Both the position numbers and the translations under genes were made by a program. Positions 391-53,358 of a stretch of 64,000 nucleotides of DNA are shown one piece after another. The DNA is taken from contig DASTWW010000212.1 of assembly GCA_035765755.1 (NCBI GenBank), forward strand, positions 4,929-68,928, in the 5' to 3' direction. A model generated the notes under the pieces. It was not told the origin of the DNA. It ran no database searches and was given only the letters and a program-made list of their open reading frames with translations. The DNA is from Nocardioidaceae bacterium. Lineage in GTDB: Bacteria; Actinomycetota; Actinomycetes; Propionibacteriales; Nocardioidaceae. Every line of letters begins with the position of its first letter. Position 1 is the stretch's first letter.

Positions 391-401
391 CGCCTGGCCT
401 T

Positions 402-459
402 TACCGACAACGTGTCGCTATCGCGACCCATACGTCGCGGTAGGCATACCAATATCGGT
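402..459 (+). repeat. Intergenic 45-bp-unit repeat family, locus A (1 unit plus 13-nt terminal half-unit)
   Basis: TACCGACAACGTGTCGCTATCGCGACCCATACGTCGCGGTAGGCA followed by TACCAATATCGGT. It shares the unit seen at 19142, 31398 (reverse) and 37457. It contains the CGCGAC-N6-GTCGCG hairpin and starts 11 nt after the upstream stop codon. Confidence 0.85.
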
Positions 460-494
460 TTGTTTGGGGGGACGAGGGGCGGGTACGGCCAGGC

Positions 495-2925: not shown

Positions 2926-5543
<2,618 letters not shown>

Positions 5544-9495: not shown

Positions 9496-11063
9496 TGGCC
9501 CATCATCGCGGCCGCGGAGGCCTGCTCGCCGGACTGCTCGGCCCGGAGCTTCTTGCGGGGCAGCATCAGCGCCGGGATCAGCGTGAGCACCACCAACACC
9601 CAGGCCACCCAGTAGGTCTGCGCGAACGCGCTCGCGGCGCCCTCCAGCCCCTTCGCCACTGCAGCCGGGCCGCCGATCTTGTCGATCAACGACGGGTCAT
9701 GCTGCGTGGCGATCGCCGGAAGGGCGAGCGGCGAGGCCTTGAGGTGGTTGGTCAGCAGCACCGACATGACCGCGACCCCGATCGAGCTGGCCACCTGCTG
9801 GGTGATGTTCAGCAGGGTCGAGCCCCGCGCCACCTGATGCGGCCGAAGCGTCTTCAGGGCTGCGGTGAACAGCGGCATCATCGTCGCGCCCATGCCCAGG
9901 CCCATCACGAACAGCTCCGCGATCAGCAGGGTGTACGACGTGTCGGCGGTCACCTGGGTCAGCCCGAACATGCCGATCACGATGATCACCAGCCCGACCG
10001 GCACGATCCGGCCGATCGGAAGGCGGTCGGCGAGCGCGCCGGCGATCGGCATGGTCATCATCGCGCCGATGCCCTGCGGGGCCACCAGCAGGCCGGCGTC
10101 GAGGGTGGACTCGCCGCGCACCTCCTGGAAGTACGTCGGCACCAGCAGCAGGCCACCGAAGAAGGCCGCCGCGAACAGGAACATCGTGATCACCGAGACG
10201 GTGAGGTTGCGATCCTTGAACAGCCGCAGGTCCAGCAGTGGATGCGCCGGCTTGAACGAGCGGAGCACGAAGACCGCCATCAGCACGAAGCCGATGAGCA
10301 TGGAGACCCAGACGCGCGGCGCCGATACGCTGCCCTGGCTGGGGATCGAGGAGACGCCGAACAGGAACAGCGCCAGGCCGGGGGACATGAGCGCCATGCC
10401 CACGAAGTCGAAGGACTCCGACGGCTCGGGACGGTCCTTGTCCAGGACCAGCCAGGAGTAGACGAGGGCTGCCGCGCCGATCGGCACGTTGATCAGGAAC
10501 ACCCAGTTCCAGCTGGCCACCTCGATCAGCCAGCCGCCGAGGATCGGGCCCAGGATGGGGCCGAGCAGCATCGGCACGCCGAGGATGGCCATCAGCCGGC
10601 CCATCCGGTGCGGCCCGGCGGCCCGGGTCATGATCGTCATGCCCAGCGGCATCAGCATGCCGCCGCCGAGGCCCTGCAGCACCCGGAAGGCGATCAGCAC
10701 GTTGATGTCCCAGGCGGTCGCGCACAGTGCGGATCCGATCGTGAACAGCGCGATCGCAGTCATGTACAGCCGCTTGGTGCCGAACCGGTCCGCCGCCCAT
10801 CCCGAGAGCGGGATGACCGTGGCCAGCGCCAGGGTGTAGCCGGTGACCGTCCAGGCGACGGTGGAGTACGGCACCGGGTGCCCCGCCGTCCCGAACACCA
10901 CCTGGAAGGTCGGCAGCGCGACGTTCACGACGGTGATGTCCAAGATGGACATGATTGCGCCGAGAACAACGACGCCGGCGACCTTGAGGACGGCGGCGTC
11001 GATCTTGTCGGGCAGGTCGGGGCTGGCGCCCGGGCTGTGGCCGGGACTGGTCTCGAGGCTCAT
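9492..11063 (-). CDS. MFS transporter, DHA2 (EmrB/QacA-like, 14-TMS) drug:H+ antiporter family
   Basis: 523 aa and strongly hydrophobic. Motifs typical of DHA2 efflux pumps (ALPTF, GWAADRFGTKRLY, LQGLGGGMLMP). Confidence 0.9.
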   Translation of the reverse strand: MSLETSPGHSPGASPDLPDKIDAAVLKVAGVVVLGAIMSILDITVVNVALPTFQVVFGTAGHPVPYSTVAWTVTGYTLALATVIPLSGWAADRFGTKRLYMTAIALFTIGSALCATAWDINVLIAFRVLQGLGGGMLMPLGMTIMTRAAGPHRMGRLMAILGVPMLLGPILGPILGGWLIEVASWNWVFLINVPIGAAALVYSWLVLDKDRPEPSESFDFVGMALMSPGLALFLFGVSSIPSQGSVSAPRVWVSMLIGFVLMAVFVLRSFKPAHPLLDLRLFKDRNLTVSVITMFLFAAAFFGGLLLVPTYFQEVRGESTLDAGLLVAPQGIGAMMTMPIAGALADRLPIGRIVPVGLVIIVIGMFGLTQVTADTSYTLLIAELFVMGLGMGATMMPLFTAALKTLRPHQVARGSTLLNITQQVASSIGVAVMSVLLTNHLKASPLALPAIATQHDPSLIDKIGGPAAVAKGLEGAASAFAQTYWVAWVLVVLTLIPALMLPRKKLRAEQSGEQASAAAMMGH

Positions 11064-19018: not shown

Positions 19019-19141
19019 GGTCTCTCCCCGTTCGTAGGCCGGCGAGCCCGCCGGCCGAGACTGGCTGGTGAGGCCACACGTTAGACCGGTTCGCGAGGTT
19101 TGGGAATAGTCACACGTCTGCGCCGCATCTCCGCCGGTTCT

Positions 19142-19245
19142 TACCGACGTCGTGTCGATATCGCGACGTATAGGTCGCGCTCGACGTACCGACAACGTGT
19201 CGATATCGCGACGTATAGGTCGCGCTGGACGTACCGATATCGGTA
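19142..19245 (+). repeat. Intergenic 45-bp-unit repeat family, locus B (2 units plus 14-nt palindromic terminal half-unit)
   Basis: Units at 19142-19186 and 19187-19231 (TACCGACrwCGTGTCGATATCGCGACGTATAGGTCGCGCTsGACG), then TACCGATATCGGTA at 19232-19245. Confidence 0.9.
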
Positions 19246-19261
19246 CGACGGGGGAGGTGAC

Positions 19262-20275
19262 TCAGGCGGTGTAGGCCTTGGCGATCAGCTCGTAGGACAG
19301 CCGGCGCTCCGCGGGGTCGTGCACCTGGGTGGTGATGATCAGCTCGTCGGCATCGGCCTCGCGACGCCGGCGCTCCAGGTCGTCGCGGACCTGCTCCGGG
19401 GTGCCCACCGAGATGAACCGGCGCCGCCCGGCAGCGGCCTGCCGCTCGTCTGGGGTCCACGGATGCGCCGCGGCCTCCTCCGGCGTGGGCACCGGGCCGG
19501 GCCGGTTCTGCCGCAGCCGCAGGGTGGCCAGGTCGTTGGCCAGCGCGAGCTGCTCGGCGCGCTCCTCGGTCTCCGCGGCGATCGCCGCCACCCCGAGCAT
19601 CACCTTGGGCGCGGCCAGCCGCGACGACGGCTCGAACCGCTCCCGGTAGATCCCCACCGCCTCGCCCGGGTCGGCCGACCCGAAGTGCCCCGCGAAGGCG
19701 AACCCGGTCCCGAACGCAGCGGCCGCCTGCCCGCCGTACAGGCTGGACCCGAGGATCCACAGCGGCGGCAGGGGTACGTCGTCAGGGATCGCGGTCAGTG
19801 GCTTGAACGGGTGGTCGTCGGGGAAGCCGTCGACGTAGGCCAGTAGCTCGGCGAACTGCTGCGGGAACTCCTCGGGGTCGACCCGGCCGCGGCGCAGCGC
19901 GAACGCGGTGAGCTGGTCGGTGCCCGGCGCGCGGCCGATACCGAGGTCGATCCGGCCGGGGTGCAGGCCCTCGAGCACCCGAAAGCTCTCCGCCACGGCG
20001 AGCGGCGCGTGGTTGGGCAGCATGATGCCGCCGCTGCCGACCCGGATCGTGCTGGTGTGCGCGGCCACCGTCGCGATCATCACCATCGGCGCGCTGCTCG
20101 CGACACTGGGGATGTTGTGGTGCTCGGCCAGCCAGTACCGCTCGTAGCCGTAGGACTCCGCCGCCTTCGCCAGCGCAATCGTGTCGTGCAGCGCCGACGA
20201 CGGCGGCCGGCCGGCGGGGATCGGGGACAGGTCCAGGACGGAGAGCTGCACGGTGGTGGTCACGTTTGCCCCCAA
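19262..20275 (-). CDS. LLM-class (luciferase-like) flavin-dependent oxidoreductase
   Basis: LSVLDLSP..., YERYWLAEHHN, GSGGIMLPNHAPL, GIGRAPGTD are typical of this family. Confidence 0.85.
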   Translation of the reverse strand: MGANVTTTVQLSVLDLSPIPAGRPPSSALHDTIALAKAAESYGYERYWLAEHHNIPSVASSAPMVMIATVAAHTSTIRVGSGGIMLPNHAPLAVAESFRVLEGLHPGRIDLGIGRAPGTDQLTAFALRRGRVDPEEFPQQFAELLAYVDGFPDDHPFKPLTAIPDDVPLPPLWILGSSLYGGQAAAAFGTGFAFAGHFGSADPGEAVGIYRERFEPSSRLAAPKVMLGVAAIAAETEERAEQLALANDLATLRLRQNRPGPVPTPEEAAAHPWTPDERQAAAGRRRFISVGTPEQVRDDLERRRREADADELIITTQVHDPAERRLSYELIAKAYTA

Positions 20276-29091: not shown

Positions 29092-31392
<2,301 letters not shown>

Positions 31393-31397
31393 TCCTG

Positions 31398-31455
31398 ACC
31401 GACATCGGTGCGTCCACCGCGACGTATGGGTCGCGTTATCGACACGATGTCGGTA
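31398..31455 (-). repeat. Intergenic 45-bp-unit repeat family, locus C (1 unit plus terminal half-unit, reverse orientation)
   Basis: The reverse complement reads TACCGACATCGTGTCGATAACGCGACCCATACGTCGCGGTGGACG then CACCGATGTCGGT. It lies between the convergent stop codons of purL and the DUF1906 gene. Confidence 0.85.
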
Positions 31456-31459
31456 AAGA

Positions 31460-32770
31460 TCAGCGGGCGCCGGACTGGAACTCGGCCCAGGTGTCCGAGG
31501 CGACCACGCCGGTGGCCGGCAGGCCGAGCGACTTCTGGTAGTCGCTGACGGCGGCAGTGGTGGCCCGGTCGAAGATGCCCGTGACGTCCAACCGGGCGCC
31601 GGTCGCCGCGTTGAGGGCGCGTTGCACCCGTCGTACGGCGTCGCTCGCCGACCCCTGCTTGAGCACCGGGGAGGATCCCGCCGACAGCAGCGCGGTCCAG
31701 GTGCTCGCCGTCATCGCCCCGGACACCCGCAGGTGCCGGCTGCGCTGGAACCCTCGGGTGGCGCGCACGGTCGGCCGGGTGAACCGGCCGGTGATCCGTC
31801 CGACGTCGAAGCCGTGCTGCCGGAGCAGACACTGCGCCGCCTTCACCTGACCGCTGCGGGCGCCGCGGGTCAGCAGGCGGTAGCGGGCGAAGTCGACCCG
31901 CACTCCGCAGGTACGACGCGGGGACGGGGCCACCGAGCCGCGTCCGACATCCATGAAGCTGCGATCGATCGACAGGGTCACCCCGCCGTACGTCGCCGAG
32001 CGGTCCAGCCGGAACTGGTGGATGCGCCGGTGCGGTGCCCAGCTGGACGGACGCACCCAGCTGCGGCGGATCCAGGTGTCGGCGCGGCCGTTGTCCCAGG
32101 CGTACCAGACCTGGTCCGGCTCGACGTAGGCCGTGGGTGACACCTTGTCGGCGAAGTCGATGGACGCGATGGCCGCGGCGACGTTCGCGTAGACCCCCGA
32201 GACGAAGCCAAGCTGGTGCAACCGTCGGCTCCACGAGGACAGGAAGTTCAGCACCGACCGGCGGCAGTCGTCGCCGGCGAGCGGGTAGTCCTCCATGTCG
32301 TACCAGAGGGTGCTGCCCGCCGGGATACCGAGAGCGCGGGCGGCCTGGACGGCGTGGAATGCCTGGCGGCGCCCCTCTCGCCGGGCGGCCCGGTAGCCGC
32401 CTGCGGGCTCGGGGCTCACGACAGAGGCGTACTCCCGCTGCGCGCACGATGCCTGCGGACCCACCCAGATCGGCAGCACCCGCCACCCCCGACGCGACTG
32501 CCGGCGCACCCAGCCGGCGTCCAGGTAGGTCTGGTCCTTGCACTGCCTGTTGCTGCCGCCGATGTAGACACCGACACCCCAGAACGGCGACCCGGTCCGC
32601 CAGGCGTCCATCTCCGCGTTCGACGGCGCGCAGCGGGTGTCGAACGCGACCCCGGTGAACGAGCCGGGCGTGGGTCGCGGCGCCGACACGGCCGAGGAGG
32701 CCGGGGCGAGCGCGCCGAGCACGGCAAGGGTCAGCGCGCCCGCGAAGGCGCCCAGGGTACGACGGGACAC
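31460..32770 (-). CDS. secreted DUF1906 (Rv2525c-like glycoside-hydrolase-like) protein with two C-terminal peptidoglycan-binding domains
   Basis: Signal peptide; GVAFDTRCAPS...WGVGVYIGG...RQCKDQ core. Two PG_binding_1-like repeats (VKAAQCLL...GRFTRPTVRATRGFQ and VRRVQRAL...GIFDRATTAAVSDYQ). Confidence 0.75.
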   Translation of the reverse strand: MSRRTLGAFAGALTLAVLGALAPASSAVSAPRPTPGSFTGVAFDTRCAPSNAEMDAWRTGSPFWGVGVYIGGSNRQCKDQTYLDAGWVRRQSRRGWRVLPIWVGPQASCAQREYASVVSPEPAGGYRAARREGRRQAFHAVQAARALGIPAGSTLWYDMEDYPLAGDDCRRSVLNFLSSWSRRLHQLGFVSGVYANVAAAIASIDFADKVSPTAYVEPDQVWYAWDNGRADTWIRRSWVRPSSWAPHRRIHQFRLDRSATYGGVTLSIDRSFMDVGRGSVAPSPRRTCGVRVDFARYRLLTRGARSGQVKAAQCLLRQHGFDVGRITGRFTRPTVRATRGFQRSRHLRVSGAMTASTWTALLSAGSSPVLKQGSASDAVRRVQRALNAATGARLDVTGIFDRATTAAVSDYQKSLGLPATGVVASDTWAEFQSGAR

Positions 32771-36093: not shown

Positions 36094-37455
36094 ATGACTG
36101 ACGCGCCCGCCCGCAAGTCCACCGACCAGCTCCGTGCCGCCTTGCAGAAGGTGCTGCCGTCGGTGCGCGCCGACCTCGAGAGGCTCGTGCGCATCCCGTC
36201 GGTGAGCGCCGACCCGGCCCGGGCCGAGGACGTACGCCGCTCGGCGGACCTGACCGCAGAACTGTTCCGCAACGAGGGCTTCGACGACGTGCGCATCCTC
36301 TCCAGCGCCGGCGGCGGTCCCGCCGTGGTGGCCCGGAAGCCCGCGTCGGAGGGCGCGCCCACCGTGCTGCTGTACGCCCACCACGACGTGCAGCCGGTCG
36401 GCGACCTGGACGCGTGGGACAGCGACCCGTTCGAGCCGACCGAGCGCGGTGACCGGCTCTACGGACGCGGCGCCGCCGACGACAAGGCCGGCATCGCCGC
36501 GCACCTGGCCGCAATCCGCAGCCACGCCGGCGACCTGCCGGTGGGCGTGACGGTGCTCGTCGAGGGCGAGGAGGAGCTCGGCTCCCCGACCCTCGCGCCG
36601 TTCCTGGCCGAGCACCAGGACCTGCTGGCCGCCGACGTGATCGTGATCGCCGACTCCGGGAACTGGGACATCGGCATCCCCGCGCTGACCACCACACTGC
36701 GCGGCAATGTGGACGTGTTCGTCGAGGTGGCCACCCTCGACCACGGCGTGCACTCGGGCATGTGGGGCGGCCTGGTGCCGGACGCGATGATGGTGCTGGT
36801 CCGGCTGCTGGCCACCCTGCACGACGACCAGGGCAACGTCGCCGTCGAGGGCCTGGTCTCCGGCCCGGCGGCGGACCTGGACTACCCCGAAGACCGGATC
36901 CGCGCCGAGTCCTCGGTGCTCGGCGGCGTCGAGCTGATCGGCTCTGGGTCGTACGTCGAGCGGCTCTGGACGAAGCCCTCGATCTCGATCATCGGCCTGG
37001 ACACCACCCGCACCGCCGAGGCCAGCAACACGCTGATCCCCAAGGCGAAGGCCAAGGTCTCCCTGCGGCTGGCACCCGGCGACCACGCCGAGTCGGCCAT
37101 CGAGAAGCTGATCTCGCACCTGGAGTCGCACGTCCCCTGGGGCGCGCGCATCACCATCACCAAAGGTCGCGAGAGCGGAGAGCCCGGCGTCATCGACGCC
37201 GAGGGTCCGGTGTACGACGTGGCGCGGGCCGCGTTCAAGGAGGCCTGGGACGGCACCGACCCGGTCGACATGGGAGTCGGCGGGTCGATCCCGTTCATCG
37301 CGGCCTTCCAGGGCGCATTCCCCGACGCCGCCGTACTCGTCACCGGTGTCGAGGACCCCGACACGCGCGCCCACGGCGCCAACGAGGGACTGCACCTCGC
37401 CGAGTTCGAACGGGTCTGCCTCGCCGAGGCGCTGCTGCTCAACAACCTCGCCTGA
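36094..37455 (+). CDS. M20-family dipeptidase
   Basis: LVRIPSVSAD, LLYAHHDVQPVG, RLYGRGAADDKAG, VLVEGEEELGSP motifs. Start ATG 36094. Confidence 0.85.
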   Translation: MTDAPARKSTDQLRAALQKVLPSVRADLERLVRIPSVSADPARAEDVRRSADLTAELFRNEGFDDVRILSSAGGGPAVVARKPASEGAPTVLLYAHHDVQPVGDLDAWDSDPFEPTERGDRLYGRGAADDKAGIAAHLAAIRSHAGDLPVGVTVLVEGEEELGSPTLAPFLAEHQDLLAADVIVIADSGNWDIGIPALTTTLRGNVDVFVEVATLDHGVHSGMWGGLVPDAMMVLVRLLATLHDDQGNVAVEGLVSGPAADLDYPEDRIRAESSVLGGVELIGSGSYVERLWTKPSISIIGLDTTRTAEASNTLIPKAKAKVSLRLAPGDHAESAIEKLISHLESHVPWGARITITKGRESGEPGVIDAEGPVYDVARAAFKEAWDGTDPVDMGVGGSIPFIAAFQGAFPDAAVLVTGVEDPDTRAHGANEGLHLAEFERVCLAEALLLNNLA

Positions 37456-37456
37456 C

Positions 37457-37607
37457 GTACCAATATCGTGTCGATATCGCGACCTATGCGTCGCGGTAGG
37501 CGTACCGACATCGTGTCGATATCGCGACCTATGCGTCGCGGTTGACGTACCGACATCGTGTCGATAACGCGACCTATGCGTCGCGGTAGGCGTACCGACA
37601 TCGGTGC
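37457..37607 (+). repeat. Intergenic 45-bp-unit repeat family, locus D (3 units plus 16-nt terminal half-unit)
   Basis: Units at 37457-37501, 37502-37546 and 37547-37591 (GTACCGACATCGTGTCGATATCGCGACCTATGCGTCGCGGTAGGC, 2-4 differences between units), then GTACCGACATCGGTGC at 37592-37607. It starts 2 nt after the M20 stop and ends 29 nt before the purF start. Confidence 0.95.
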
Positions 37608-37635
37608 AGAACGGGCGGACCCCTACACTGAGGTA

Positions 37636-39180
37636 GTGCCTCGGACCCGCGGAGACGGACGCCTCACCCACGCCCTCGACCCGCACGACCTCGGACCGCA
37701 GGACGCGTGCGGCGTGTTCGGGGTCTGGGCGCCCGGTGAGGACGTCGCGAAGCTGACCTACTACGGGCTGTACGCCCTGCAGCACCGCGGTCAGGAGTCC
37801 GCAGGGATCGCGGTGAGCAACGGCCGCCAGATCCTGGTCTTCAAGGACATGGGCCTGGTCTCCCAGGTCTTCGACGAGGCCACGCTCGAGTCCCTCAAGG
37901 GGCACGTCGCGATCGGCCACGCGCGCTACTCCACCACCGGCGCCAGCACCTGGCACAACGCGCAGCCGACGTTCCGGCCGACCGCGACCGGCTCCCTCGC
38001 CCTGGCCCACAACGGCAACCTGACCAACACCCACGAGCTGGCTGAGCGGGTGCAGGGACTGGCCCCGCTGAACGGCGAGCTGGACCTACCGATGCGCAAC
38101 CAGCACAACTCCACGAACGACACGAGCCTGGTGACCGCGCTGCTCGCCCACCACCCGGACACCAGCCTGGAGGAGAACGCCGCCGCAGTCCTGCCCACCA
38201 TCCGGGGCGCGTTCTCATTCGTCTGGATGGACGAGAACACCCTCTACGCCGCTCGCGACCCGCAGGGCATCCGCCCGCTGGTCCTCGGCCGGCTCGAGCG
38301 CGGCTGGGTGGTCGCCTCGGAGACCGCCGCCCTCGACATCGTCGGCGCCTCCTTCATCCGCGAGGTGGAGCCCGGCGAGCTGGTCGCCGTCGACGAGGAC
38401 GGGCTGCGCAGCCGCACCTTCGCCGACCCGGCGCCGAAGCACTGCCTGTTCGAGTTCGTCTACCTGGCCCGCCCCGACACGCTGATGAGCGACCAACGGG
38501 TGCACAGCGTGCGCGTCGAGATAGGCCGGCGGCTGGCCCGCGAGTTCCCCACCGAGGCGGACCTGGTCATTCCGGTCCCCGAGTCCGGAACGCCCGCCGC
38601 CATCGGGTACGCCGAGGAGTCCGGGATTCCCTACGGCTCCGGGCTGGTCAAGAACTCGTACGTCGGACGGACGTTCATCCAGCCTTCCCAGACGATCCGG
38701 CAGCTCGGCATCCGGCTGAAGCTCAACCCGCTGCGCGACGTCATCGAGGGCAAGCGGCTCGTCGTGGTCGACGACTCGATCGTGCGCGGCAACACCCAGC
38801 GCGCGCTGGTCCGGATGCTGCGCGAGGCGGGCGCCCGCGAGGTGCACGTGCGGATCTCCAGCCCGCCGGTGAAGTGGCCGTGCTTCTACGGCATCGACTT
38901 CGCCAGCCGCGCCGAGCTGATCGCCAACGGACTGTCCAGCGACGAGATCTGCCGCTCCATCGACGCCGACTCGCTGGGCTACATCTCCCTCGACGAGCTC
39001 GTCGAGGCCACCGGCGTGCCCAAGAACAACCTGTGCCGGGCCTGCTTCGACGGGGTGTACCCAGTGCCGCTGCCCGAGCCGGAGCACCTCGGCAAGCACC
39101 TGCTCGAACCGGCCGTCGTCGGCCCGAAGCTGCCTCTCACCCTGGGCGGCGGGGCCTCCGACGCCCTCGGACGTCCCTGA
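37636..39180 (+). CDS. purF: amidophosphoribosyltransferase
   Basis: ACGVFGVWAPGEDVAKLTYYGLYALQHRGQESAGI (Ntn Cys after a propeptide) and the PRTase motif VVVDDSIVRGNT. The start is set at GTG 37636, outside the repeat array. The track start at 37558 lies inside the repeats. Confidence 0.9.
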   Translation: MPRTRGDGRLTHALDPHDLGPQDACGVFGVWAPGEDVAKLTYYGLYALQHRGQESAGIAVSNGRQILVFKDMGLVSQVFDEATLESLKGHVAIGHARYSTTGASTWHNAQPTFRPTATGSLALAHNGNLTNTHELAERVQGLAPLNGELDLPMRNQHNSTNDTSLVTALLAHHPDTSLEENAAAVLPTIRGAFSFVWMDENTLYAARDPQGIRPLVLGRLERGWVVASETAALDIVGASFIREVEPGELVAVDEDGLRSRTFADPAPKHCLFEFVYLARPDTLMSDQRVHSVRVEIGRRLAREFPTEADLVIPVPESGTPAAIGYAEESGIPYGSGLVKNSYVGRTFIQPSQTIRQLGIRLKLNPLRDVIEGKRLVVVDDSIVRGNTQRALVRMLREAGAREVHVRISSPPVKWPCFYGIDFASRAELIANGLSSDEICRSIDADSLGYISLDELVEATGVPKNNLCRACFDGVYPVPLPEPEHLGKHLLEPAVVGPKLPLTLGGGASDALGRP

Positions 39181-45068: not shown

Positions 45069-48000
45069 CTACTGGCTCGGGGGCCGCTCAGCCGGCCGTG
45101 AGCACGCACCACACGGACTTGCCGTGCTCGGTGCCCCGGGTGCCCCATCGGAGGCGAGCGCGGCGACGATCTGCAGCCCCCGGCCGTGCTCGTCGTCGGG
45201 GGTGGGCCGCAGCCGGCGCGGCTGGTAGGTGGCCCGGTCCAGCACCTCGACCATCACCTCCGTGTCCCGGGTGCGCAGCCGCAGCTCCAGCGGGCCCGCG
45301 CCGTGCAGCACCGCGTTGGTGACCAGCTCGCTGGTGGCGAGCACGGTGTCCTCGGCGAGCCGCTCGGGAAGGTCGTGGTCGGCCAGGTGCCGGCCGACGA
45401 TGCTGCGGGCCTGGTGCGCGGCGGTCTCGGTGGCCTCGAGCCGTTGGATCAGGATCGGGTTCTCTTCGGTGGGGTCGACCCGGGCGATCAGGATCGCCAC
45501 GTCGTCATCCGGGCCTTCCGGCAGCAGCGCGTCCACCAGCCGTTCCGGCATCCCCGACGTCGCGCCCTCCAGCCCGCCGGCCAGCCGGGCCAGCGTGGTG
45601 ATGCCCCGGTCCAGGTCCTCGCCCCGTCGCTCCACCAGCCCGTCGGTGTAGAGCACCGCCATCCCGCCGGCCTCCAACCGGACGTCGCGCTGGGCCAGCG
45701 TGAACGGCCCGGTGCCCAGCGGCGGGTCGGCTGCTCCGGTGAGCACCCGGGACGCGCCGTCGGCACTGACCAGGATCGGGGGCAGGTGCCCGGCGTTGGC
45801 GATGCGCAGCACCCGGTCGGCCGGGTCGAAGACCGCGTACAGGCAGGTGACGATCTGGTTCTCGTCCAGGTCGCGGACGATCCCGTCGAGGTACTCCAGC
45901 ACGTCGGCCGGCGGCAGGCCGAGCCGCGCATAGGCCCGGGTCGCGGTGCGGAGCTGCCCCATCACCGCAGCCGCCTGCACGCCGCGGCCCATCACGTCGC
46001 CCACCACGAGGGCGGTCCTGCCCGCGCCGAGCTGGATCACGTCGTACCAGTCACCGCCGACCTGAGTGCCCTCGACCCCCGCCCGGTAGAAGGTGGCCAC
46101 CTCCAGGTGCTCGAGGTCGAAGGAGGTCTCGGGCAGCAGGCTGCGCTGCAGCTGGTCGGCGATGGCGTGCTCGCGGGCGGCCGCCTCCGCGTTCGCGGTC
46201 GCCAGGGCCAGCGCCTCCTCCGCGGCGCGGCGCTCGGTGATGTCCTGCACCGAGCCGCGGATCGCCTCGACCTCGCCGTCCTCGTCGCGCAGCACCTCGG
46301 CCCGCACGCTGACCAGCACCGCGCTGCCGTCGGGGTGGACCATGCGGGCCTCGTAGGTGATCGGCTCTCCGGCGACGCCGGCGTCGAAGGCGCGCTGCAC
46401 CATCGCCCGGTCGTCAGGGTGCACCAGCTCGTTGATCAGCTCCGGGTAGCGCAGCGCGGCCACCTCCTCGGCGGTGCGGCCGGCGATCCGCAGGTACTCC
46501 TCCGAGACGTGGACCGCACCGGTGCGCAGGTCGATCTCCCAGCTGCCCACCTGGGCAAGCCGCTGGGCCTGGTCCAGGAGGGTGCGTCCGCGCTCGAGCT
46601 GGCGCCGGATCCGGCGGGCCCGGTCGAGCTCCAGGTTGGCGCGCACCCGTGCCTTCAGCTCCCGGGCGGTGAACGGCTTGATCAGGTAGTCGTCCGCGCC
46701 CCGGTCCAGGCCCTCGAGCATCCCCTCCTCCCCGGCGCGTGCGGAGAGCATCACGACCGGCACGCCCACCGTGGCCGGATCCCCCTGCAGGGCGGCGAGC
46801 AGCTCGAAGCCGTCCATCCGCGGCATCATCACGTCGGTGAGCACGAGGTCGGGGTGCAGCACCCATGCCTTGGTCAGTGCGTCCGCCCCGTCCACGGCGG
46901 TGTCCACGTGGTACTCGTCGGCCAGCACCCCGGCGACGTACTCCCGGATGTCGGCGTTGTCGTCGACGACCAGGACCCGTGGCGCCGGTCCCTCGTGCTG
47001 CGCCGGCCAGGACGGCGCCCAGGTAGGGCCGGAGGACAGTTGGAGAGCCTCCTCCACGGAGCCCTCGGTGTCGCTCGGTGTGGCCGAGGAGGCGCCGCCG
47101 GTGGTCACTGCGTCGCACGGCAGGTGGTCGGGCCCGAAGGGGACGCGGACGCAGAAGGTGCTGCCCACCCCGAGCACGCTGGTCACCGTGGCGGTGCCGC
47201 CGTGCAGCTCGGCCAGCTCCCGGACCATCGCGAGCCCGATGCCGGAGCCCTCGTGGGTCCGGGACGCGGCTCCGTGCACCCGGCGGAACCGCTCGAACAG
47301 GTGCGGGATCTCCGGCTGAGGAATGCCGGTCCCGGTGTCGACGACGGCCAGCTCGACCTGCCCGTCGACCTGGCGCAGGTGCACCTCGATGCCGCCGGAA
47401 AAAGTGAACTTCAGCGCGTTCGACAGCAGGTTGAGCACCATCTTCGCCCACAGCTCGGCGTCGACGTACACCGGGTCGGGCAGCGGCGGACAGTCGACGG
47501 TCAGCGACAGTCCGAGCCGCTCGGTGGCCGCGTCGAACATGCTGGCCAGCTCGCGGGTGTACTGCGCCAGGTCGATGGGCGCGAACTGTGCCTCGGTGCG
47601 GCCGGACTCCAGCCGGGAGAAGTCCAGCAGGGTGTTGACCAGCTTGAGCAGCCGCTGACCGTTGCGCAAGATCACCTCGACCCGGCCGCGCTGCCGATCC
47701 GGCAGCGGCAGCTGGGGGTCGGCGAGCGCGTCCTCCGCCGGCCCGAGCAGCAGCGTCAACGGGGTGCGGAACTCGTGGCTGATGTTGGTGAAGAAGTCGG
47801 TCTTGGCGTGGTCGAGCTCGGCGAGGGTCTCTGCGCGAGCGCGCTCGAAGTCGAAGGCGCGGCCCTCGGTGATGACGGAGGTGAGCTGACCCGCGACCAG
47901 GTCCAGGAAGTCGCGGTAGCCGCGGTCGAGCGGTCGGTAGCGGTTCACCGCGGCGACCAGGAAGCCGTACGGGCTCGCCTGCCCGCTCTGGGCCAGCGGC

Positions 48001-48821
48001 AGCACCACCGCCGACACCGGAGGGTCCACCCACCGGCCGGTGGGCAGGTCGGCGAACCGGGGCGGCAGGTCGACCAGCACGCTTCGGCCGGCCAGCGCCT
48101 CACCGACCGGCCAGGGGTGCTGCGCGTCCAACGGCAGCTCGGCCGGGGCGGCCGGGTGGCCGCCCGTGAACCCCGCGCTGCCGGCGAGTCGGGCGACGCC
48201 GGCCGGCTCGTCGTACAGGTAGACCAGGCTGAACGGGAGCGCGTCCGTCGCCTCGTCCAGCTGCCGGCAGGACGCGGCGACCATCTCGGCCTCACCGAGG
48301 CTGACGCTGGACCGGGCGCCGAGGTCCCGCAGGATGCTCATCCGCCGCCGACCGATCACCTCCTGGGTGTCCTCGGTGACTACGCACAGCATCCCGGCGA
48401 TCTTGCCGCCGTCGTCGAACAGCGGGCTGTAGGAGAACGTGTGGTAGGTCTCCTCGACGTACTCGTTGCGCTCGAGGAACAGCAGCAGCGACTCGTCCCA
48501 GGTGGCGACCCCGGTGGTGAGCACCTTCTCGATGCGCGGGCCGATGTCGTGCCAGATCTCCGACCACACCTTCGAGGCCGGCTTGCCCAGGGCCCACGGA
48601 TACTTCTTGCCAAGCGTGTCGCGGCGGTAGGCGTCGTTGCAGAAGAAGGTCAGCTCCGGGCCCCACGCCATCCACATCGGGAACCGCGACGTGAGCACCA
48701 TGCGTACGACGCTCTGCAGGCTGCGCGGCCAGCTGTCCAGGGGACCGAGCGGTGTTGCGGACCAGTTGACGTCGAGCAGGTCACGACCCACCCCGCCGAT
48801 CCTCTCGAACATCTCCCGCAT
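45069..48821 (-). CDS. multidomain sensor: PAS-GAF-HisKA-HATPase_c-REC-PAS-PP2C(SpoIIE)-HATPase_c_2 (RsbW-like); apparent 1-nt frameshift near the 3' end
   Basis: H-box SHEFRTPL; N/G boxes LLSNALKFT, DTGTGI, GSGIGLAMV. Receiver VLVVDDN...LTDVMMP...GADDYLIKPF. PP2C GGDWYDV...GDVMGRGVQAA...LYTDGLVERRG. RsbW-like ELVTNAVLHG...EHGRGLQIVAALAS. Start ATG 48821 has an AGGAGA RBS. The canonical ending WGTRGTEHGKSVWCVLTAG* is readable only in another frame (45147-45088). Confidence 0.85.
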   Translation of the reverse strand: MREMFERIGGVGRDLLDVNWSATPLGPLDSWPRSLQSVVRMVLTSRFPMWMAWGPELTFFCNDAYRRDTLGKKYPWALGKPASKVWSEIWHDIGPRIEKVLTTGVATWDESLLLFLERNEYVEETYHTFSYSPLFDDGGKIAGMLCVVTEDTQEVIGRRRMSILRDLGARSSVSLGEAEMVAASCRQLDEATDALPFSLVYLYDEPAGVARLAGSAGFTGGHPAAPAELPLDAQHPWPVGEALAGRSVLVDLPPRFADLPTGRWVDPPVSAVVLPLAQSGQASPYGFLVAAVNRYRPLDRGYRDFLDLVAGQLTSVITEGRAFDFERARAETLAELDHAKTDFFTNISHEFRTPLTLLLGPAEDALADPQLPLPDRQRGRVEVILRNGQRLLKLVNTLLDFSRLESGRTEAQFAPIDLAQYTRELASMFDAATERLGLSLTVDCPPLPDPVYVDAELWAKMVLNLLSNALKFTFSGGIEVHLRQVDGQVELAVVDTGTGIPQPEIPHLFERFRRVHGAASRTHEGSGIGLAMVRELAELHGGTATVTSVLGVGSTFCVRVPFGPDHLPCDAVTTGGASSATPSDTEGSVEEALQLSSGPTWAPSWPAQHEGPAPRVLVVDDNADIREYVAGVLADEYHVDTAVDGADALTKAWVLHPDLVLTDVMMPRMDGFELLAALQGDPATVGVPVVMLSARAGEEGMLEGLDRGADDYLIKPFTARELKARVRANLELDRARRIRRQLERGRTLLDQAQRLAQVGSWEIDLRTGAVHVSEEYLRIAGRTAEEVAALRYPELINELVHPDDRAMVQRAFDAGVAGEPITYEARMVHPDGSAVLVSVRAEVLRDEDGEVEAIRGSVQDITERRAAEEALALATANAEAAAREHAIADQLQRSLLPETSFDLEHLEVATFYRAGVEGTQVGGDWYDVIQLGAGRTALVVGDVMGRGVQAAAVMGQLRTATRAYARLGLPPADVLEYLDGIVRDLDENQIVTCLYAVFDPADRVLRIANAGHLPPILVSADGASRVLTGAADPPLGTGPFTLAQRDVRLEAGGMAVLYTDGLVERRGEDLDRGITTLARLAGGLEGATSGMPERLVDALLPEGPDDDVAILIARVDPTEENPILIQRLEATETAAHQARSIVGRHLADHDLPERLAEDTVLATSELVTNAVLHGAGPLELRLRTRDTEVMVEVLDRATYQPRRLRPTPDDEHGRGLQIVAALASDGAPGAPSTASPCGACSRPAERPPSQ

Positions 48822-49087
48822 GTTCCGTCTCCTGGCGTCGCGGGTCGGTTCAGTGCAGTCAATCATGGGACTGACCTGTTCCGCAGTCCCCAAAACAGGC
48901 CGTGAACTGCGGCTTTGCCCACATTGGGCGGCTTCGTTCCCCACCGGGCTCGCCACGCCTGCTGGTGCTGGTCCTGACCAGCAGCACTACTTCGGGGAAA
49001 CGGGTTTCGGCCGGTCCGGTGAGGGCTACGTCCGAGCCTTCCGGGCGCTCGCGCCCCGGACGACAACCGCTCGAAGGGAGCAAGGAC

Positions 49088-49897: not shown

Positions 49898-52180
49898 ATG
49901 TCGGGTATCGGGTCATCGCGGAAGTACACGAGCGCCGCCCGGGCCGGCGTACTGCTCAGGATCGGCACGCTGCTCGCCATGGTCGCGGGCCTGTTGGTCA
50001 GTACGGCGGCCGGGGCGGACGCTGCCACCGGTTTGGACGTGTACGTCGGCTACATGGACACGCACACGCGGGCCACCAGCACTCAGCAGCCGAACCCCTG
50101 GCCGTACACCGACTCGTCCCGGTACGTGGGCACGCCCTGCCCGAACTACGGCAGCACCAACGCGTGCTGGGACGCCAGCGCGCTGATGTTGAAGAACAAC
50201 GGCGACACCGATGTGACCGGCATCCACGTGGTGGTCATGATGGGGACCCACAAGTACGACCTCTGGGGTCCCGACTTGAGGGTGGCAGCACACGACTATC
50301 TGGTGCTGACGGAGACCGGGTCGTCCCCGAACTCGGAGAACTTCGACGGCTCGGACTTCTCGCCGAACGCCTACAACGGCGGCCTGGAGGCCTCCTGCAT
50401 CGACTCCGGAGCACGTCCGACTGTGAGCGTGACCATCGGCGGCGCCACCACGTCGTACTCCGACACCGGGCAGGTGCTGAACGCCGGTGGGGTGGACGGC
50501 GGGCACTGCGTGGACGGAGTGTTCGTGCCCGGTCGGATGGACGAGTCTCATCCCTGGGTGCTGATCGGCACTGCTCCGGCCGGTGGTGGTGGTGGCGGCA
50601 CGGCGGCAACCGCGCCTGCTGCACCGACGAACCTGAAGGCCACCGCGGGCGACGGCTCGGTGAAGCTGACCTGGACGGCGCCCGCCGACGGCGGGTCGGC
50701 GATCACCGGCTACCGGGTGCTGCGAGCCACGACGCGTGGCGGGGAGTCCATCCTCACCACCGTGAGCTCGACCAGCTTCACCGACACCGGCGTGACGAAC
50801 GGGACGACGTACTACTACACGGTCGTCGCGGTGAACGGCATCGGGCCGTCGCCGCAGTCGAACGAGGCCTCGGCGACCCCGCAGCCCGCGACTCCGGCGC
50901 CGACCCCGCCTTCCGCGCCGACGAACCTGAAGGCGATGGCGGGAGACGGGTCGGTGACGCTGAGCTGGACCGCGCCAAGCGGCGGCTCAGCTCCAACCAG
51001 CTACAGCATCTACCGGGGTGCGACGGCGGGCGGCGAGTCGAGTACCCCGGTCAAGGCGGTGACGTCGACGAGCTGGACAGACACGGGACTCACCAACGGA
51101 ACGCCGTACTTCTACACGGTCGTGGCGGTGAACGACATAGGGCCGTCGCCGCAGTCGAACGAAGCCTCGGCGACGCCGCAAACCACCACGCCACCGTCTG
51201 GTGGCTCTGGTGGAGGTTCTGGCGGTGGCTCCGGGCCGACCCCGGACCCCGGGCCGTCACCTGTTCCGCAGCCTTCGCCGGCGACCGCGCCCTCGGCCCC
51301 CGCAAGGCTGGCCGCCTCCGTCGCGAACGGGGCGATCCGGCTCACCTGGTCCTCGCCGGCCTCGGATGGCGGCGCGCCGGTCACCGGCTACCAGCTCTAC
51401 AGAGGTACGACGGGGGGAGGCGAAGCCCCGACCCCGGTGATCACCGGGATCGTGACCACGACGTTCACCGACACCGACGTGCGCCCCGGGACGACGTACT
51501 TCTACACAGTGGCTGCGGTCAACGCGGTGGGCACCTCTGCCCCGTCCGCCGAGGCCTCCGCCCAGGTGAGCTCACCGAACAGGCGGGGGATCTGTGCTGG
51601 GCTGGCCCGCTGCCACGTGACGGCTCGCGCCGACGTGAACGGTGACGGCCACCGCGACGTGATCGCGATGGCCCGGCGGGGCGGCCGCCTCGGGTCGACG
51701 GGCGCGGTGATCCTGCGGGTCAAGACAGGCCCGCACCACGTCGTACAGACTCGTCGGCGCCTGGAGAACTGGTCCCGGTCCCCGTGGGTCGGTGTCGCCC
51801 GGCTCGACCGGCGGCCCGGCAAGGAGATCGTGCTCGGCCGGCTCTCCGGAGCGGCGGCGACCTTCTACCAGTCGATCACGTGGCGGCGCGGCCACCTGGT
51901 GCTGCTCGACGCTCCGGGCCGCGGCCGGTGGTGGCCGCTCGACTTCTCCGCCACCCTGCAGGCGGGCTGGCAGCGACGAGCGGCCGACCCCGTCGGCACT
52001 ATTCGGCAGCGCATCGCCACGCACCCGAGCAGCGACGGGACCTACCGCGGCAGGATCAAGATCTACCGCTGGACCAGATCCGGATGGCACCTGGTCCGCA
52101 CCAGGACGAACGGCTCCGTGCCGCTGCAACGGGCGCAGCGCTGGGGCGGCTTCCATGTGCCCGGGCTGCCGCGGTTCTGA
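49898..52180 (+). CDS. secreted protein: unknown N-terminal domain, three fibronectin type III domains, and a C-terminal FG-GAP/VCBS-like region
   Basis: Signal peptide; three FN3 units (PTNLKATAGDGSVKLTWTAP...YYYTVVAVNGIGPSPQSNEASATP and two more); DVNGDGHRDV motif near the C-terminus. Confidence 0.8.
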   Translation: MSGIGSSRKYTSAARAGVLLRIGTLLAMVAGLLVSTAAGADAATGLDVYVGYMDTHTRATSTQQPNPWPYTDSSRYVGTPCPNYGSTNACWDASALMLKNNGDTDVTGIHVVVMMGTHKYDLWGPDLRVAAHDYLVLTETGSSPNSENFDGSDFSPNAYNGGLEASCIDSGARPTVSVTIGGATTSYSDTGQVLNAGGVDGGHCVDGVFVPGRMDESHPWVLIGTAPAGGGGGGTAATAPAAPTNLKATAGDGSVKLTWTAPADGGSAITGYRVLRATTRGGESILTTVSSTSFTDTGVTNGTTYYYTVVAVNGIGPSPQSNEASATPQPATPAPTPPSAPTNLKAMAGDGSVTLSWTAPSGGSAPTSYSIYRGATAGGESSTPVKAVTSTSWTDTGLTNGTPYFYTVVAVNDIGPSPQSNEASATPQTTTPPSGGSGGGSGGGSGPTPDPGPSPVPQPSPATAPSAPARLAASVANGAIRLTWSSPASDGGAPVTGYQLYRGTTGGGEAPTPVITGIVTTTFTDTDVRPGTTYFYTVAAVNAVGTSAPSAEASAQVSSPNRRGICAGLARCHVTARADVNGDGHRDVIAMARRGGRLGSTGAVILRVKTGPHHVVQTRRRLENWSRSPWVGVARLDRRPGKEIVLGRLSGAAATFYQSITWRRGHLVLLDAPGRGRWWPLDFSATLQAGWQRRAADPVGTIRQRIATHPSSDGTYRGRIKIYRWTRSGWHLVRTRTNGSVPLQRAQRWGGFHVPGLPRF

Positions 52181-52205: not shown

Positions 52206-53039
52206 CTACGCGCTGCCGTCCGCGTCCTTCGCCGTCGCCTTCCGCGTGGCCTTGGCCGCCTTCTTCGCAGCCGTCTTGGTGGCCTGCTTGACCGCTGTCT
52301 TGGACGATGTCCGTTCGGCGGGTCGGCGTCGCTTCACGCGGACCCACAACTGCCCGCGCCCGCCTGGCCCGGTGACCGTCTTGGTCTCGACGAACGGCTG
52401 CTCCTTGACCAGGTCGCTGAGCTTGCCGAGCCCGTAGGTGCGGGGGTCGAACGACGGGTCGGTGCGGTTGAGATGGTTCGCTACCGCGCTGAGCGAGGCC
52501 CAGTCTTCGTCGTCGGTGGCGACCTTGTTCAGCGCCTTGGTGAGCACGCTCTGGATCGGCTTCGGCTGGTCGTCCTTCGCCTCCGCGCTTGCACCCCCGT
52601 CGCCGGCGAGGACCTCGAGGAACACGAACCTCTCACAGGCCTCCACGAAGGCCTTCGGGGTCTTCCGCTGGCCCACGCCGATGACCCGCTTGCCCGACTC
52701 GCGGAGCCGGGTGGCCAACGGCGTGAAGTCGCTGTCGCTGGAGACGATGGCGAAGCCCTCCACGTTGCCGGAGTAGAGCAGGTCCATCGCGTCGATGATC
52801 AGTGCAGAGTCCGTGGCGTTCTTGCCGTAGGTGTAGGCGAACTGCTGCTGCGGGGAGATCGCGTTGCCGAGGAGGACGTCGCGCCAGCCGTTGAGGTGGG
52901 GATTCGTCCAGTCGCCGTACGCCCGCTTGACGGTGATGGTCCCGTAGCTGGCCAGCTCCTCGAACATCTCCTGGATCAGCTTCGAGGAAGTGTTGTCGGC
53001 GTCGATCAGGACGGCGAGGCGGTGAGTGTCATCGGCCAT
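52206..53039 (-). CDS. NYN (LabA-like) domain protein with OST-HTH/LOTUS domain and Lys/Ala-rich tail
   Basis: LAVLIDADN...VKRAYGDW...FAIVSSDSDFTPLATRLRESGKRVIGVG (NYN) and DEDWASLSAVANHL...YGLGKLSDLVK (LOTUS). ATG 53039 after GAGGAGA. Confidence 0.8.
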   Translation of the reverse strand: MADDTHRLAVLIDADNTSSKLIQEMFEELASYGTITVKRAYGDWTNPHLNGWRDVLLGNAISPQQQFAYTYGKNATDSALIIDAMDLLYSGNVEGFAIVSSDSDFTPLATRLRESGKRVIGVGQRKTPKAFVEACERFVFLEVLAGDGGASAEAKDDQPKPIQSVLTKALNKVATDDEDWASLSAVANHLNRTDPSFDPRTYGLGKLSDLVKEQPFVETKTVTGPGGRGQLWVRVKRRRPAERTSSKTAVKQATKTAAKKAAKATRKATAKDADGSA

Positions 53040-53358
53040 GCGGGGTGGTCTCCTCATTCCGTTGCTGCATCTCCCAGGCAAGGTCGATGGCCATGCGCAC
53101 GGCACCGGGGTCCGCACGATCAAGGTAGGCCTCGACCTTGTGGTGTGCCTCCATGCGAGGCGGGACCCCGAAGCTGTCCGGGTTGGCCTCGAGCAGCGAC
53201 TCTCGCTTGCTCAGCGGGACGCGGATCACCACCGTGGTCTGGTCCTGCAGGCGCACGACCAGGCGGTCGTGGACGTACCACGCCGGACGAGACTCGGTGC
53301 CCTTGCGCTTGACCTGCGGCAGCGACTCCGCATACCGGCCAACTTCTTCGGGGGTCAC
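53029..53358 (-). CDS. MmcQ/YjbR-family DNA-binding protein
   Basis: Size and sequence (VGRYAESLPQV...RPAWYVHDRLVVRL...EANPDSF...HKVEAYL) fit the YjbR fold family. The start is set at GTG 53358; the track start 53400 would leave only 6 nt to the divergent MFS gene. The stop overlaps the NYN start by 11 nt. Confidence 0.65.
   Translation of the reverse strand: MTPEEVGRYAESLPQVKRKGTESRPAWYVHDRLVVRLQDQTTVVIRVPLSKRESLLEANPDSFGVPPRMEAHHKVEAYLDRADPGAVRMAIDLAWEMQQRNEETTPHGR

Follow-up and report, generated by a model that had tools for sequence, protein, structure and literature searches.

Three tandem copies of a palindromic 45-bp sequence lie between an M20-peptidase gene and purF in a Nocardioidaceae genome, and further copies occur between other genes of the same region. 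What kind of sequence is this, how did it come to lie between these genes and does it act on their expression? The window analysed here is a 64-kb chromosomal stretch with 70.8% G+C. It covers a purine-biosynthesis neighbourhood (purA, purD, purB, purC, purS, purL, purF and purM), and the product of its purF is 96% identical to that of a soil Nocardioidaceae MAG (GCA_035690905.1) and 84-87% identical to those of Nocardioides mesophilus, N. guangzhouensis, N. scoriae and Marmoricola. The four intergenic loci of the window are real copies of a small palindromic repeat. Copies of this repeat are dispersed to unrelated loci, are polymorphic for presence and change in module number. The repeat has apparently gone undescribed so far, and it is of a familiar kind (REP, BOX, TRIT) rather than a new kind of system.

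The element and its four loci in the window

Seven 45-bp units are found at four intergenic loci, A to D, in numbers of one, two, one (reversed) and three, which agrees almost to the base with a preliminary description of this DNA. TRF assigns a period of 45 to loci B and D, the former with 2.1 copies and the latter with 3.3 (93% matches). A relaxed pattern for the second stem gives 15 strand-hits in the window, namely the seven sites on both strands and one chance match; shuffled sequences give a mean of 1.39, and none attained 15. With a profile built from the seven units, all of them score E = 1e-14 to 1e-16, and the rest of the window yields no match.

Locus A is a single-module element at 398..462 (plus strand, outer left end included). 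Its unit (402-446) has the loop CCATAC and is followed by the closing palindrome TACCAATATCGGT at 447-459. The unit starts 11 nt after the stop codon of a DUF3151 gene (TGA, 388-390), and a small ORF begins on the far side (ATG, 495). Locus B is a two-module element at 19138..19249 (plus strand) with units at 19142-19186 and 19187-19231, both with the loop GTATAG, and its closing palindrome (19232-19245, TACCGATATCGGTA) is a perfect 14-bp palindrome. The neighbours, a luciferase-like gene and then a phosphodiesterase-like gene, are on the minus strand, with the element on the opposite strand. Here the stop codon (TCA, 19262-19264, minus strand) of the luciferase-like gene is 16 nt past the right end of the element, and to the left of the element comes the start of the following minus-strand gene.

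Locus C is a single-module element in reversed orientation (31393..31459, minus strand), with its unit at 31411-31455 (loop CCATAC on the element strand) and its closing palindrome at 31398-31410. It fills the entire gap between the convergent stop codons of purL (TGA, 31390-31392) and an Rv2525c-like hydrolase gene (TCA, 31460-31462); counted from the closing palindrome and the unit, the purL TGA is 5 nt before the element and the hydrolase-gene TCA 4 nt after it. Locus D is a three-module array at 37456..37609 (plus strand), with units at 37458-37502, 37503-37547 and 37548-37592, all with the loop CTATGC, and the closing palindrome TACCGACATCGGT (37593-37605, plus strand). The stop codon of the M20-peptidase gene (TGA, 37453-37455, plus strand) lies 2 nt before the array. 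Downstream, 28-30 nt separate the end of the array from the purF GTG at 37636, in accord with the 29 nt reported before. The truncated unit said to end each array is present at all four loci as a 13-14-nt palindrome, TACCGAyrTCGGT(A). The statement that every array starts near a stop codon, by comparison, holds for loci A (11 nt), C (5 nt) and D (2 nt) but is true of locus B only from its right end.

The spacer that follows array D carries a -10-like hexamer, TACACT, followed by 6 nt and the GTG start of purF (37624..37638, plus strand). This TA(C/G)ACT-N6-GTG arrangement is kept in the window and in four relatives (L112-L115), and a consensus scan upstream of purF detects no sigma-70-type site. 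To judge from actinobacterial promoters in general, purF is probably transcribed leaderless, from a promoter that starts just past array D. Array D would thus lie just upstream of the core promoter and would not form a purF leader. The arrangement suggests that the M20-peptidase and purF genes are transcribed separately. Among the ~48 window proteins scanned, no transposase, RAYT or other candidate mobilising protein was found.

Elements contain one to four tandem 45-bp modules, and each module has three parts. The first is hairpin S, TACCGAYR-TCG-TGTCGATA, which has one C-A mismatch. The second is hairpin H, CGCGAC-CYATRC-GTCGCG, in which 9 bp are possible with T20/G39/A41, and the third is a 7-nt linker. 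In position tables drawn from 63 left and 48 right ends, the two termini mirror each other, with conservation reaching 4 nt outward of TACCGA, and form terminal inverted repeats of 14-15 bp. The left repeat reads (T/C)C(T/G)T-ACCGAYRTCG and the right repeat ACCGATATCGGT-A(A/C)G(A/G); the latter is itself a 14-nt palindrome, TACCGATATCGGTA-(A/C)G(A/G). Over ~67 independent loci the end-to-end consensus is yCkTACCGAYRTCG ... CGAYRTCGGTAmGr, and the element end sequence is TCTTACCGAYRTCG. In a subset of elements, similarity extends outward as CCCCCGTCG / CGACGGGGG or CTGATCCT / AGGATCAG. Terminal inverted repeats had been noticed in the preliminary description, but at a length of ~10-12 bp, which is too short, and the element extends ~4 nt further on each side. 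Arrays close with the short palindrome in 48 cases and with a long form of the first hairpin in 13.

The single-module element at locus C and its flanks fold through the element ends into one long hairpin that encloses both stop codons (-46 and -50 kcal/mol on the two strands; z = -5.4 and -5.8). Multi-module arrays have many alternative folds, with modest z values of -1.5 to -2.5. At 47 loci there is no excess of direct repeats that would mark a target-site duplication (k = 2-5, any offset, compared with permuted pairings). Related loci totalling 720 kb were searched for a parent insertion sequence, and neither a full-length element with these ends nor isolated or far-separated pairs of ends were found; the only end matches there are ACC-GAC-type chance matches in coding sequence.

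Dispersal, placement and variation of the family

A strict 20-base pattern was searched in one genome per species across 185,579 species. Real matches are restricted to four soil MAGs, three of them Nocardioidaceae and the fourth represented by a Pedococcus-binned contig. Genomes of cultured species in this set have no match to the strict pattern, and by the same scan the element is absent from Mycobacterium genomes. The contig of the 'Pedococcus' MAG (L009) is only 4 kb long and may be mis-binned. The strict pattern is also found in 101 soil-metagenome contigs. Outside the window, a profile search of metagenome and MAG contigs yields 190 full units in 112 arrays (48 of one unit, 51 of two, 12 of three and one of four), which reduce to ~67 independent loci. 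The repeat alone is common to the window and the other contigs, and the flanks are unrelated. The repeat is therefore a genuine dispersed family and not a coincidence of this window, as had been proposed from its four loci.

The copy number of the family is reflected in eight soil or rhizosphere metagenome runs in which this region is present. Words within the unit reach 80-340x the depth of the single-copy flanks, and loose ends at the unit lead to many different flanks. In short-read assemblies, contigs that encode an identical M20 or hydrolase protein break inside the repeat, which is expected of a high-copy repeat. Empty alleles at loci C and D are not seen among metagenome contigs, which break in the repeat. 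As far as the strict pattern can tell, the family appears confined to an uncultured soil Nocardioidaceae lineage. Its true range may be wider, since diverged variants such as that of L113 would escape the strict pattern.

Database searches are in keeping with the earlier view that the element is not a named family. Rfam has 0 matches to the whole window at the gathering threshold, and a permissive Rfam scan of locus D returns two far-below-threshold chance matches only. A plasmid database has no match. Viral contigs give two matches, both by chance within unrelated sequence, and 0 matches with the variant pattern. No description of the element was found in the literature searched.

The placement of the family is narrow. 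Counts were made with a simple third-position-GC gene caller on the ~67 loci. A gene tail adjoins 31 of 43 left ends and 37 of 51 right ends, and convergent contexts outnumber divergent ones by 18 to 3. Co-directional contexts show no bias in orientation (5 vs 7), and a polarity of the element relative to the upstream gene, which had been a first impression from the raw flanks, is unsupported by the counts. In ~70% of the ends next to a gene tail, no more than 9 nt separate the stop codon from the TACCGA core, and on either side the commonest distance is 4 nt. These 4 nt are the conserved outer end bases, so many elements adjoin TGA or TCA directly; the outermost bases TCCT / AGGA do so (next to TGA / TCA) at no fewer than eight independent loci on each side. 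Elsewhere in the window, the stops of convergent genes lie 1 nt apart in one case (2004/2006) and overlap by 4 nt in another (7030-7033). An element that lands between convergent stops of this kind adjoins both of them automatically. The element is present at only one of ~9 convergent junctions in the window.

Orthologous sites differ in the presence of the element. Locus B is filled in the window and empty in L113, which has an unrelated 73-nt spacer. At locus C the element is present in the window and L112; L113 lacks it and has a 16-nt spacer between the same stop positions. Locus D is filled in the window, in L116 and, in variant form, in L113, and it is empty in L112, L114 and L115 (N. 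mesophilus). The variant in L113 consists of one module with short palindromes on both sides, whereas L116, whose M20 protein is identical, has the same array D, and its contig breaks inside the array. Relatives that lack the element thus have an unrelated spacer of 16-73 nt at the sites compared (B, C and D), and no clean empty site is found at these loci. Because the spacers are unrelated, the boundaries of the insertion and the direction of change, gain or loss, are unproven. The more distant L113 shares a filled locus D with the window, yet in L112, the closest relative, the site is empty, a pattern that needs two insertions or one loss. The element does not supply the stop codons of its neighbours, as the purL, hydrolase and M20 genes end at the same codon in relatives without it. 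Replacement of a native terminator hairpin by the element was likewise rejected, as shuffled sequences fold as well as the spacers at empty sites do (z -2.0 to +1.4).

Module number also varies at orthologous sites, as judged from short-read metagenome assemblies, which can collapse tandem repeats. L023 and L032 have one and two modules between flanks that are 100% identical over 345 nt, and L034 and L037 have one and two modules between flanks that are 99.7% identical. The single module of locus A corresponds to two modules in L013 and L086 (flanks 93.6% identical), and that of locus C to two modules in L055. The VNTR behaviour that had been suggested is thus observed between contigs with 99.7-100% identical flanks.

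Sequence variation was described in a set of 144 distinct units. The six pairs of hairpin H (CGCGAC/GTCGCG) are essentially invariant in this set, an invariance partly imposed by the search pattern. Another 24 distinct units fail the pattern, and their mismatch is almost always at positions 17-19 and not in the stems. The variable sites among the 144 units are the linkers, four of the six loop positions, and positions 7 and 8. In a community pile-up, variants above 10% occur at one loop position and two linker positions only. The loops CTATAC, CCATAC and CTATGC account for most units. The 6-nt loop sequences given previously for the four loci (CCATAC at A and C, GTATAG at B, CTATGC at D) are correct, but the loop is not free to vary, with its central A and T fixed in 142 of the 144 distinct units.

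Whether this conservation reflects structure or sequence is a separate matter. The H stem never varies among the 144 units and shows no covariation. In the S stem one arm only varies, with C/T at position 7 and A/G at position 8, changes that on the unit strand would still allow G-U pairs. In the closing palindrome the frequent G-to-A change is compatible on the other strand only. The changes in S and in the closing palindrome fit opposite strands, and no strand-specific structure can therefore be deduced from them; covariation between the left and right ends is also absent. The preliminary description combined structural constraint with local amplification. Its first part, drawn from the invariant stem, is neither confirmed nor refuted, as stems that do not vary offer no covariation. 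The fixed loop bases and the near-palindromic loop would fit sequence-specific recognition equally well. Its second part is upheld. Units within an array are 93% identical, compared with 86% between loci, and the same loop is shared by 54% of within-array pairs, compared with 20% between loci. Units are thus more alike within arrays, which indicates that arrays grow in place. Read as its reverse complement, the locus B loop GTATAG equals the commonest loop, CTATAC. G27 and G32 co-occur far above independence, and an intermediate loop, CTATAG, is present in 11 units. The locus B loop could equally well stem from an inverted loop or from a pair of point changes that passed through CTATAG within one subfamily.

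Evidence for transcription comes from metatranscriptomes. In assembled metatranscriptome contigs, which carry no strand or end information, units are joined to the 3' ends of upstream genes, indicating that they are transcribed as 3' regions. Locus D has no U-tract or terminator-like site of the canonical intrinsic type, and the right flanks of the family are G-rich (48 right ends). Mycobacterial RNA polymerase has been reported to require a U-tract (PMC3993855). By analogy with REP, SPRITE and TRIT, a role as a bidirectional barrier, an insulator or a 3'-end protector would be plausible (PMC3733652, PMC3049150, PMC3152330). An operator or regulon role is unlikely, given unrelated neighbours and a location at 3' ends.

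Relation to known repeats

In the BOX elements of Streptococcus pneumoniae, boxA and boxC are 50-59 bp long and boxB is 45 bp long. BOX is the nearest known system in design, with pairing ends that enclose variable tandem modules folding independently of the ends (PMC3049150). Like the element, BOX varies in module number between strains, is enriched downstream of genes and has no evident target-site duplication, and it is regarded as MITE-like (PMC3049150). The resemblance is one of design only, and no sequence relationship is claimed. BOX is hosted by low-GC streptococci, whereas the element has GC-rich stems and resides in a high-GC actinobacterium. The ends of the element (14-15 bp) are much shorter than boxA and boxC. 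Unlike in BOX, each module opens with 11 nt that it shares with the left end, so that the array repeats its own terminus.

TRIT, the 'Tuberculosis Rho-independent terminator' motif of Mycobacterium, is the nearest system in host and placement. It is an actinobacterial, conserved, multi-copy and mostly bidirectional palindrome at gene 3' ends (PMC3152330). As with the element, its distribution around stop codons is unusually narrow, and it has been proposed as a terminator despite being non-canonical (PMC3152330). However, TRIT is reported to be restricted to Mycobacterium and overlaps the end of the coding sequence (~-8) (PMC3152330), whereas the element is found 0-9 nt after the stop codon. 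The element is further set apart from TRIT by its tandem modules and terminal inverted repeats.

In likely mechanism, the nearest systems are REP/BIME and REPIN with RAYT, which are extragenic GC-rich palindromes present in hundreds of copies (PMC3733652). REP and REPIN share with the element the lack of target-site duplications, the tandem clusters and the placement at 3' ends or between convergent genes, and roles in termination and mRNA stabilisation have been proposed for them (PMC3733652). The element is, as REP is defined, a short GC-rich extragenic imperfect palindrome in high copy. REP and REPIN have a cognate RAYT (Y1/HUH transposase) gene in the same genome, usually with REPs on its sides, and none was found among the ~48 window proteins. 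The 5' GTAG/CGTC tag of REP, on the other hand, is not consistently present. GTAG is found 3' of hairpin H in 83 of the 144 units (position 41 being A), is replaced by GTTG, GCTC and others in the remaining units and is absent at locus B, and the leftmost hairpin of the element is preceded by yCkT instead of the REP tag. Moreover, REP is a single palindrome of 20-40 bp, whereas the element is built from a two-hairpin 45-bp module with defined terminal inverted repeats.

MITEs are, like the element, small, non-coding and multi-copy sequences with terminal inverted repeats, capable of forming a long hairpin and polymorphic for presence or absence (PMC10969869, PMC3184786). The element has the terminal inverted repeats of a MITE but not the target-site duplication. 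It also differs from MITEs in that no parent insertion sequence with matching ends was found (720 kb), in being GC-rich and not AT-rich, and in its internal tandem module. Taken together, the terminal inverted repeats, the placement at gene 3' ends and the VNTR character substantiate the REP/MITE-like behaviour that the preliminary description had considered. Like the element, the MIRUs of the Mycobacterium tuberculosis complex are 45-100-bp tandem repeats between genes that behave as VNTRs and have a length divisible by 3. MIRUs share the orientation of their operon and carry putative small coupling ORFs. The element, in contrast, is orientation-independent and palindromic and lies mostly between convergent genes.

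Competing explanations and their bearing

On this evidence, the repeat is probably a non-autonomous mobile palindromic element of the REP/BOX/MITE-like kind, with a slippage-driven module number, that is tolerated and possibly useful at gene 3' ends. Such an element would have moved as DNA, with an enzyme from another part of the genome acting on it in trans. The lack of target-site duplication points to a REP/RAYT- or IS200-like mechanism, in which a single-strand hairpin would be the substrate, rather than to a classical DDE MITE. Copies would persist chiefly in the very short intervals that follow stop codons, where an insertion harms least, and slippage during replication or unequal exchange would alter module number. 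As transcribed 3' ends of genes, the GC-rich hairpins would probably, by analogy, serve as bidirectional barriers in termination, insulation or protection from 3' exonucleases. Array D would then separate transcription of the M20-peptidase gene from the purF promoter. A counterpoint to this mobile origin is the high conservation of both stems, which could reflect selection for a host function.

The counterpoint leads to a possible, though clearly less probable, explanation, that the repeat is a host-selected and sequence-defined bidirectional terminator or a stabiliser of mRNA 3' ends. In this view it would correspond, in Nocardioidaceae, to TRIT, would possibly have a dedicated factor and would have become dispersed only secondarily. 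TRIT too is a bidirectional palindrome with a narrow placement at stops, present in 147 copies (PMC3152330), and the narrow distance to stop codons on both sides, the preference for convergent pairs, the stable hairpin that encloses both stops at locus C and the invariant stems between variable linkers would all suit such a role. At all three compared loci, a relative without the element has another spacer sequence in its place. However, these spacers are not exceptionally structured (z -2.0 to +1.4), the element has no U-tract and its presence differs between close relatives. Furthermore, eight or so of the ~9 convergent junctions in the window, two of them with stops 1 nt apart or overlapping, do without it, so most genes manage without the element.

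The near-palindromic character of S and H also admits a quite improbable reading in which S (TACCGATATCGGTA) and H (6-9-bp arms with a 6-bp centre) are candidate sites for a dimeric DNA-binding protein or a site-specific recombinase, and arrays such as D would regulate genes such as purF. S is a perfect 14-bp palindrome at locus B, H including its loop (C-YATR-C) is near-palindromic with its central AT fixed in 142/144 units, the sequence itself is conserved and not pairing ability alone, and array D adjoins the purF core promoter. Yet the flanking genes are functionally unrelated, copies lie mostly at 3' ends and between convergent genes instead of at promoters, and no candidate regulator was identified. 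Polymorphism for presence upstream of an essential gene, purF, also speaks against regulation by the array. An explanation as MIRU-type repeats, whose 45-bp (15-codon) units would be translated and would couple flanking operon genes, is scarcely credible. The unit is tandem, VNTR-like and a multiple of 3 in length, and a reading of the consensus leaves two of its three frames open. The arrays nevertheless occur in both orientations relative to flanking genes and mostly in convergent contexts, begin past the upstream stop codon and, from a reading of the sequence at loci A-D, end without a start codon that overlaps the next gene; a probable purF promoter follows array D. The MIRU analogy of the preliminary description consequently fails, as the copies lie in both orientations, mostly between convergent genes, and no coupling ORF can be read in the sequence.

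If the element is indeed a mobile palindromic repeat, it gives a widespread uncultured soil Nocardioidaceae lineage a well-defined repeat family, explains the intergenic fragmentation of short-read assemblies of these genomes and offers VNTR markers for strain tracking in soil metagenomes. It would also be a second actinobacterial conserved palindrome tightly placed at stops, after TRIT. This bears on the long-standing question of transcript termination in high-GC actinobacteria, where U-tract terminators are few. Two further possibilities are together rather unlikely: an unrecognised mechanism, free of target-site duplication, that places palindromic DNA precisely between or after stop codons, or a lineage-specific, sequence-defined terminator read by a dedicated protein. 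For TRIT, a dedicated reading protein was reportedly once proposed. Either of the two, a new mobilisation mechanism or a dedicated terminator, would, if true, make the element more than another selfish repeat. For annotation, the family calls for caution against ORF calls through arrays. On one contig (L063), an ORF with no Pfam match is flanked by two inverted elements.

Element ends and neighboring stop codons

In many independent loci among the approximately 67 related ones, the outermost conserved bases of the element directly adjoin stop codons on both sides, in the arrangement cTGA-TCCT-TACCGA ... TCGGTA-AGGA-TCAg. Examples of direct abutment are found in the related loci L023, L049, L055, L090, L097, L103, and L111, and in the window at 31390-31462, between the purL and hydrolase genes. 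In three others (L009, L045, and L020), the stop codon TAA arises within the element end itself (TCTAACCGA). The abutment may be explained by the tiny convergent spacers of this lineage. Alternatively, it may reflect targeted insertion next to stop codons.

Convergent junctions of the genome are very compact. The stops of an HTH/LuxR-type gene and a diacylglycerol-kinase-like gene lie 1 nt apart (2002-2008), and those of purB and a UvrA-like gene overlap by 4 nt (7030-7033).

Variant elements and the purF upstream region

The spacer between the M20 peptidase gene and purF in the relative L113 holds a variant element (9834-9900) with the layout CACCGATGTCGGGT ... CGCGAC-ATGGAC-GTCGCG ... TACCGACATCGGT. 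Here, a short palindrome stands on each side of hairpin H, and the long S hairpin is therefore missing. The left end of the L060 element (about 4926-4971) resembles that of this variant. Because the strict pattern used to count the family misses variants of the L113 type, its true extent probably exceeds the count.

A hexamer TA(C/G)ACT precedes the GTG start codon of purF, with 6 nt between them, at 37624-37638 in the window and near 9990-10003 in L112, L113, L114, and L115 (N. mesophilus). The retention of this arrangement in all five genomes suggests that the purF mRNA is leaderless. The element's final bases, TCGGTG, precede the hexamer by exactly 17 nt in the window as well as in L113, a position expected for a -35 element.

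Loop bases of hairpin H

Across all loci, 113 distinct units have C..C as the two outer loop bases of hairpin H (positions 27 and 32 of the 45-bp unit). Another 16 have G..G, compared with about 4 predicted if the two positions were independent. In the window, these positions correspond to 19168/19173 and 19213/19218 in the two units of locus B, whose loop is GTATAG. Either the loop flipped within the palindromic stem in the G..G units, or these units form a subfamily derived by two point changes with CTATAG as the intermediate.

Bracketed gene, assembly breakpoints, and other window genes

A 332-aa ORF in L063 (216-1214) is the sole gene among the sampled loci bracketed by two inverted elements (123-1263). 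This bracketing led to its consideration as a candidate cognate gene of the element; nothing spoke in its favor, and a Pfam search of the ORF at E = 0.01 gave no match.

Among sequencing runs, the window stretches 31100-31800 and 36900-38200, which include loci C and D, had matches in soil metagenomes only. The element is also an assembly breakpoint in soil metagenomes. Three short-read contigs encoding the exact M20 or hydrolase protein of the window end inside the repeat (L116 at 4363-4448, and the ends of L117 and L118).

Elsewhere in the window, the minus strand encodes a 1295-aa multidomain signaling protein (45072-48956) with GAF, HisKA, HATPase_c, receiver, PAS, SpoIIE-type phosphatase, and anti-sigma-kinase-like HATPase_c_2 domains. 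A further minus-strand gene (52209-53123), whose product combines an NYN nuclease domain with an OST-HTH/LOTUS domain, adjoins the gene for a 760-aa fibronectin-type-III repeat protein (49898-52180).
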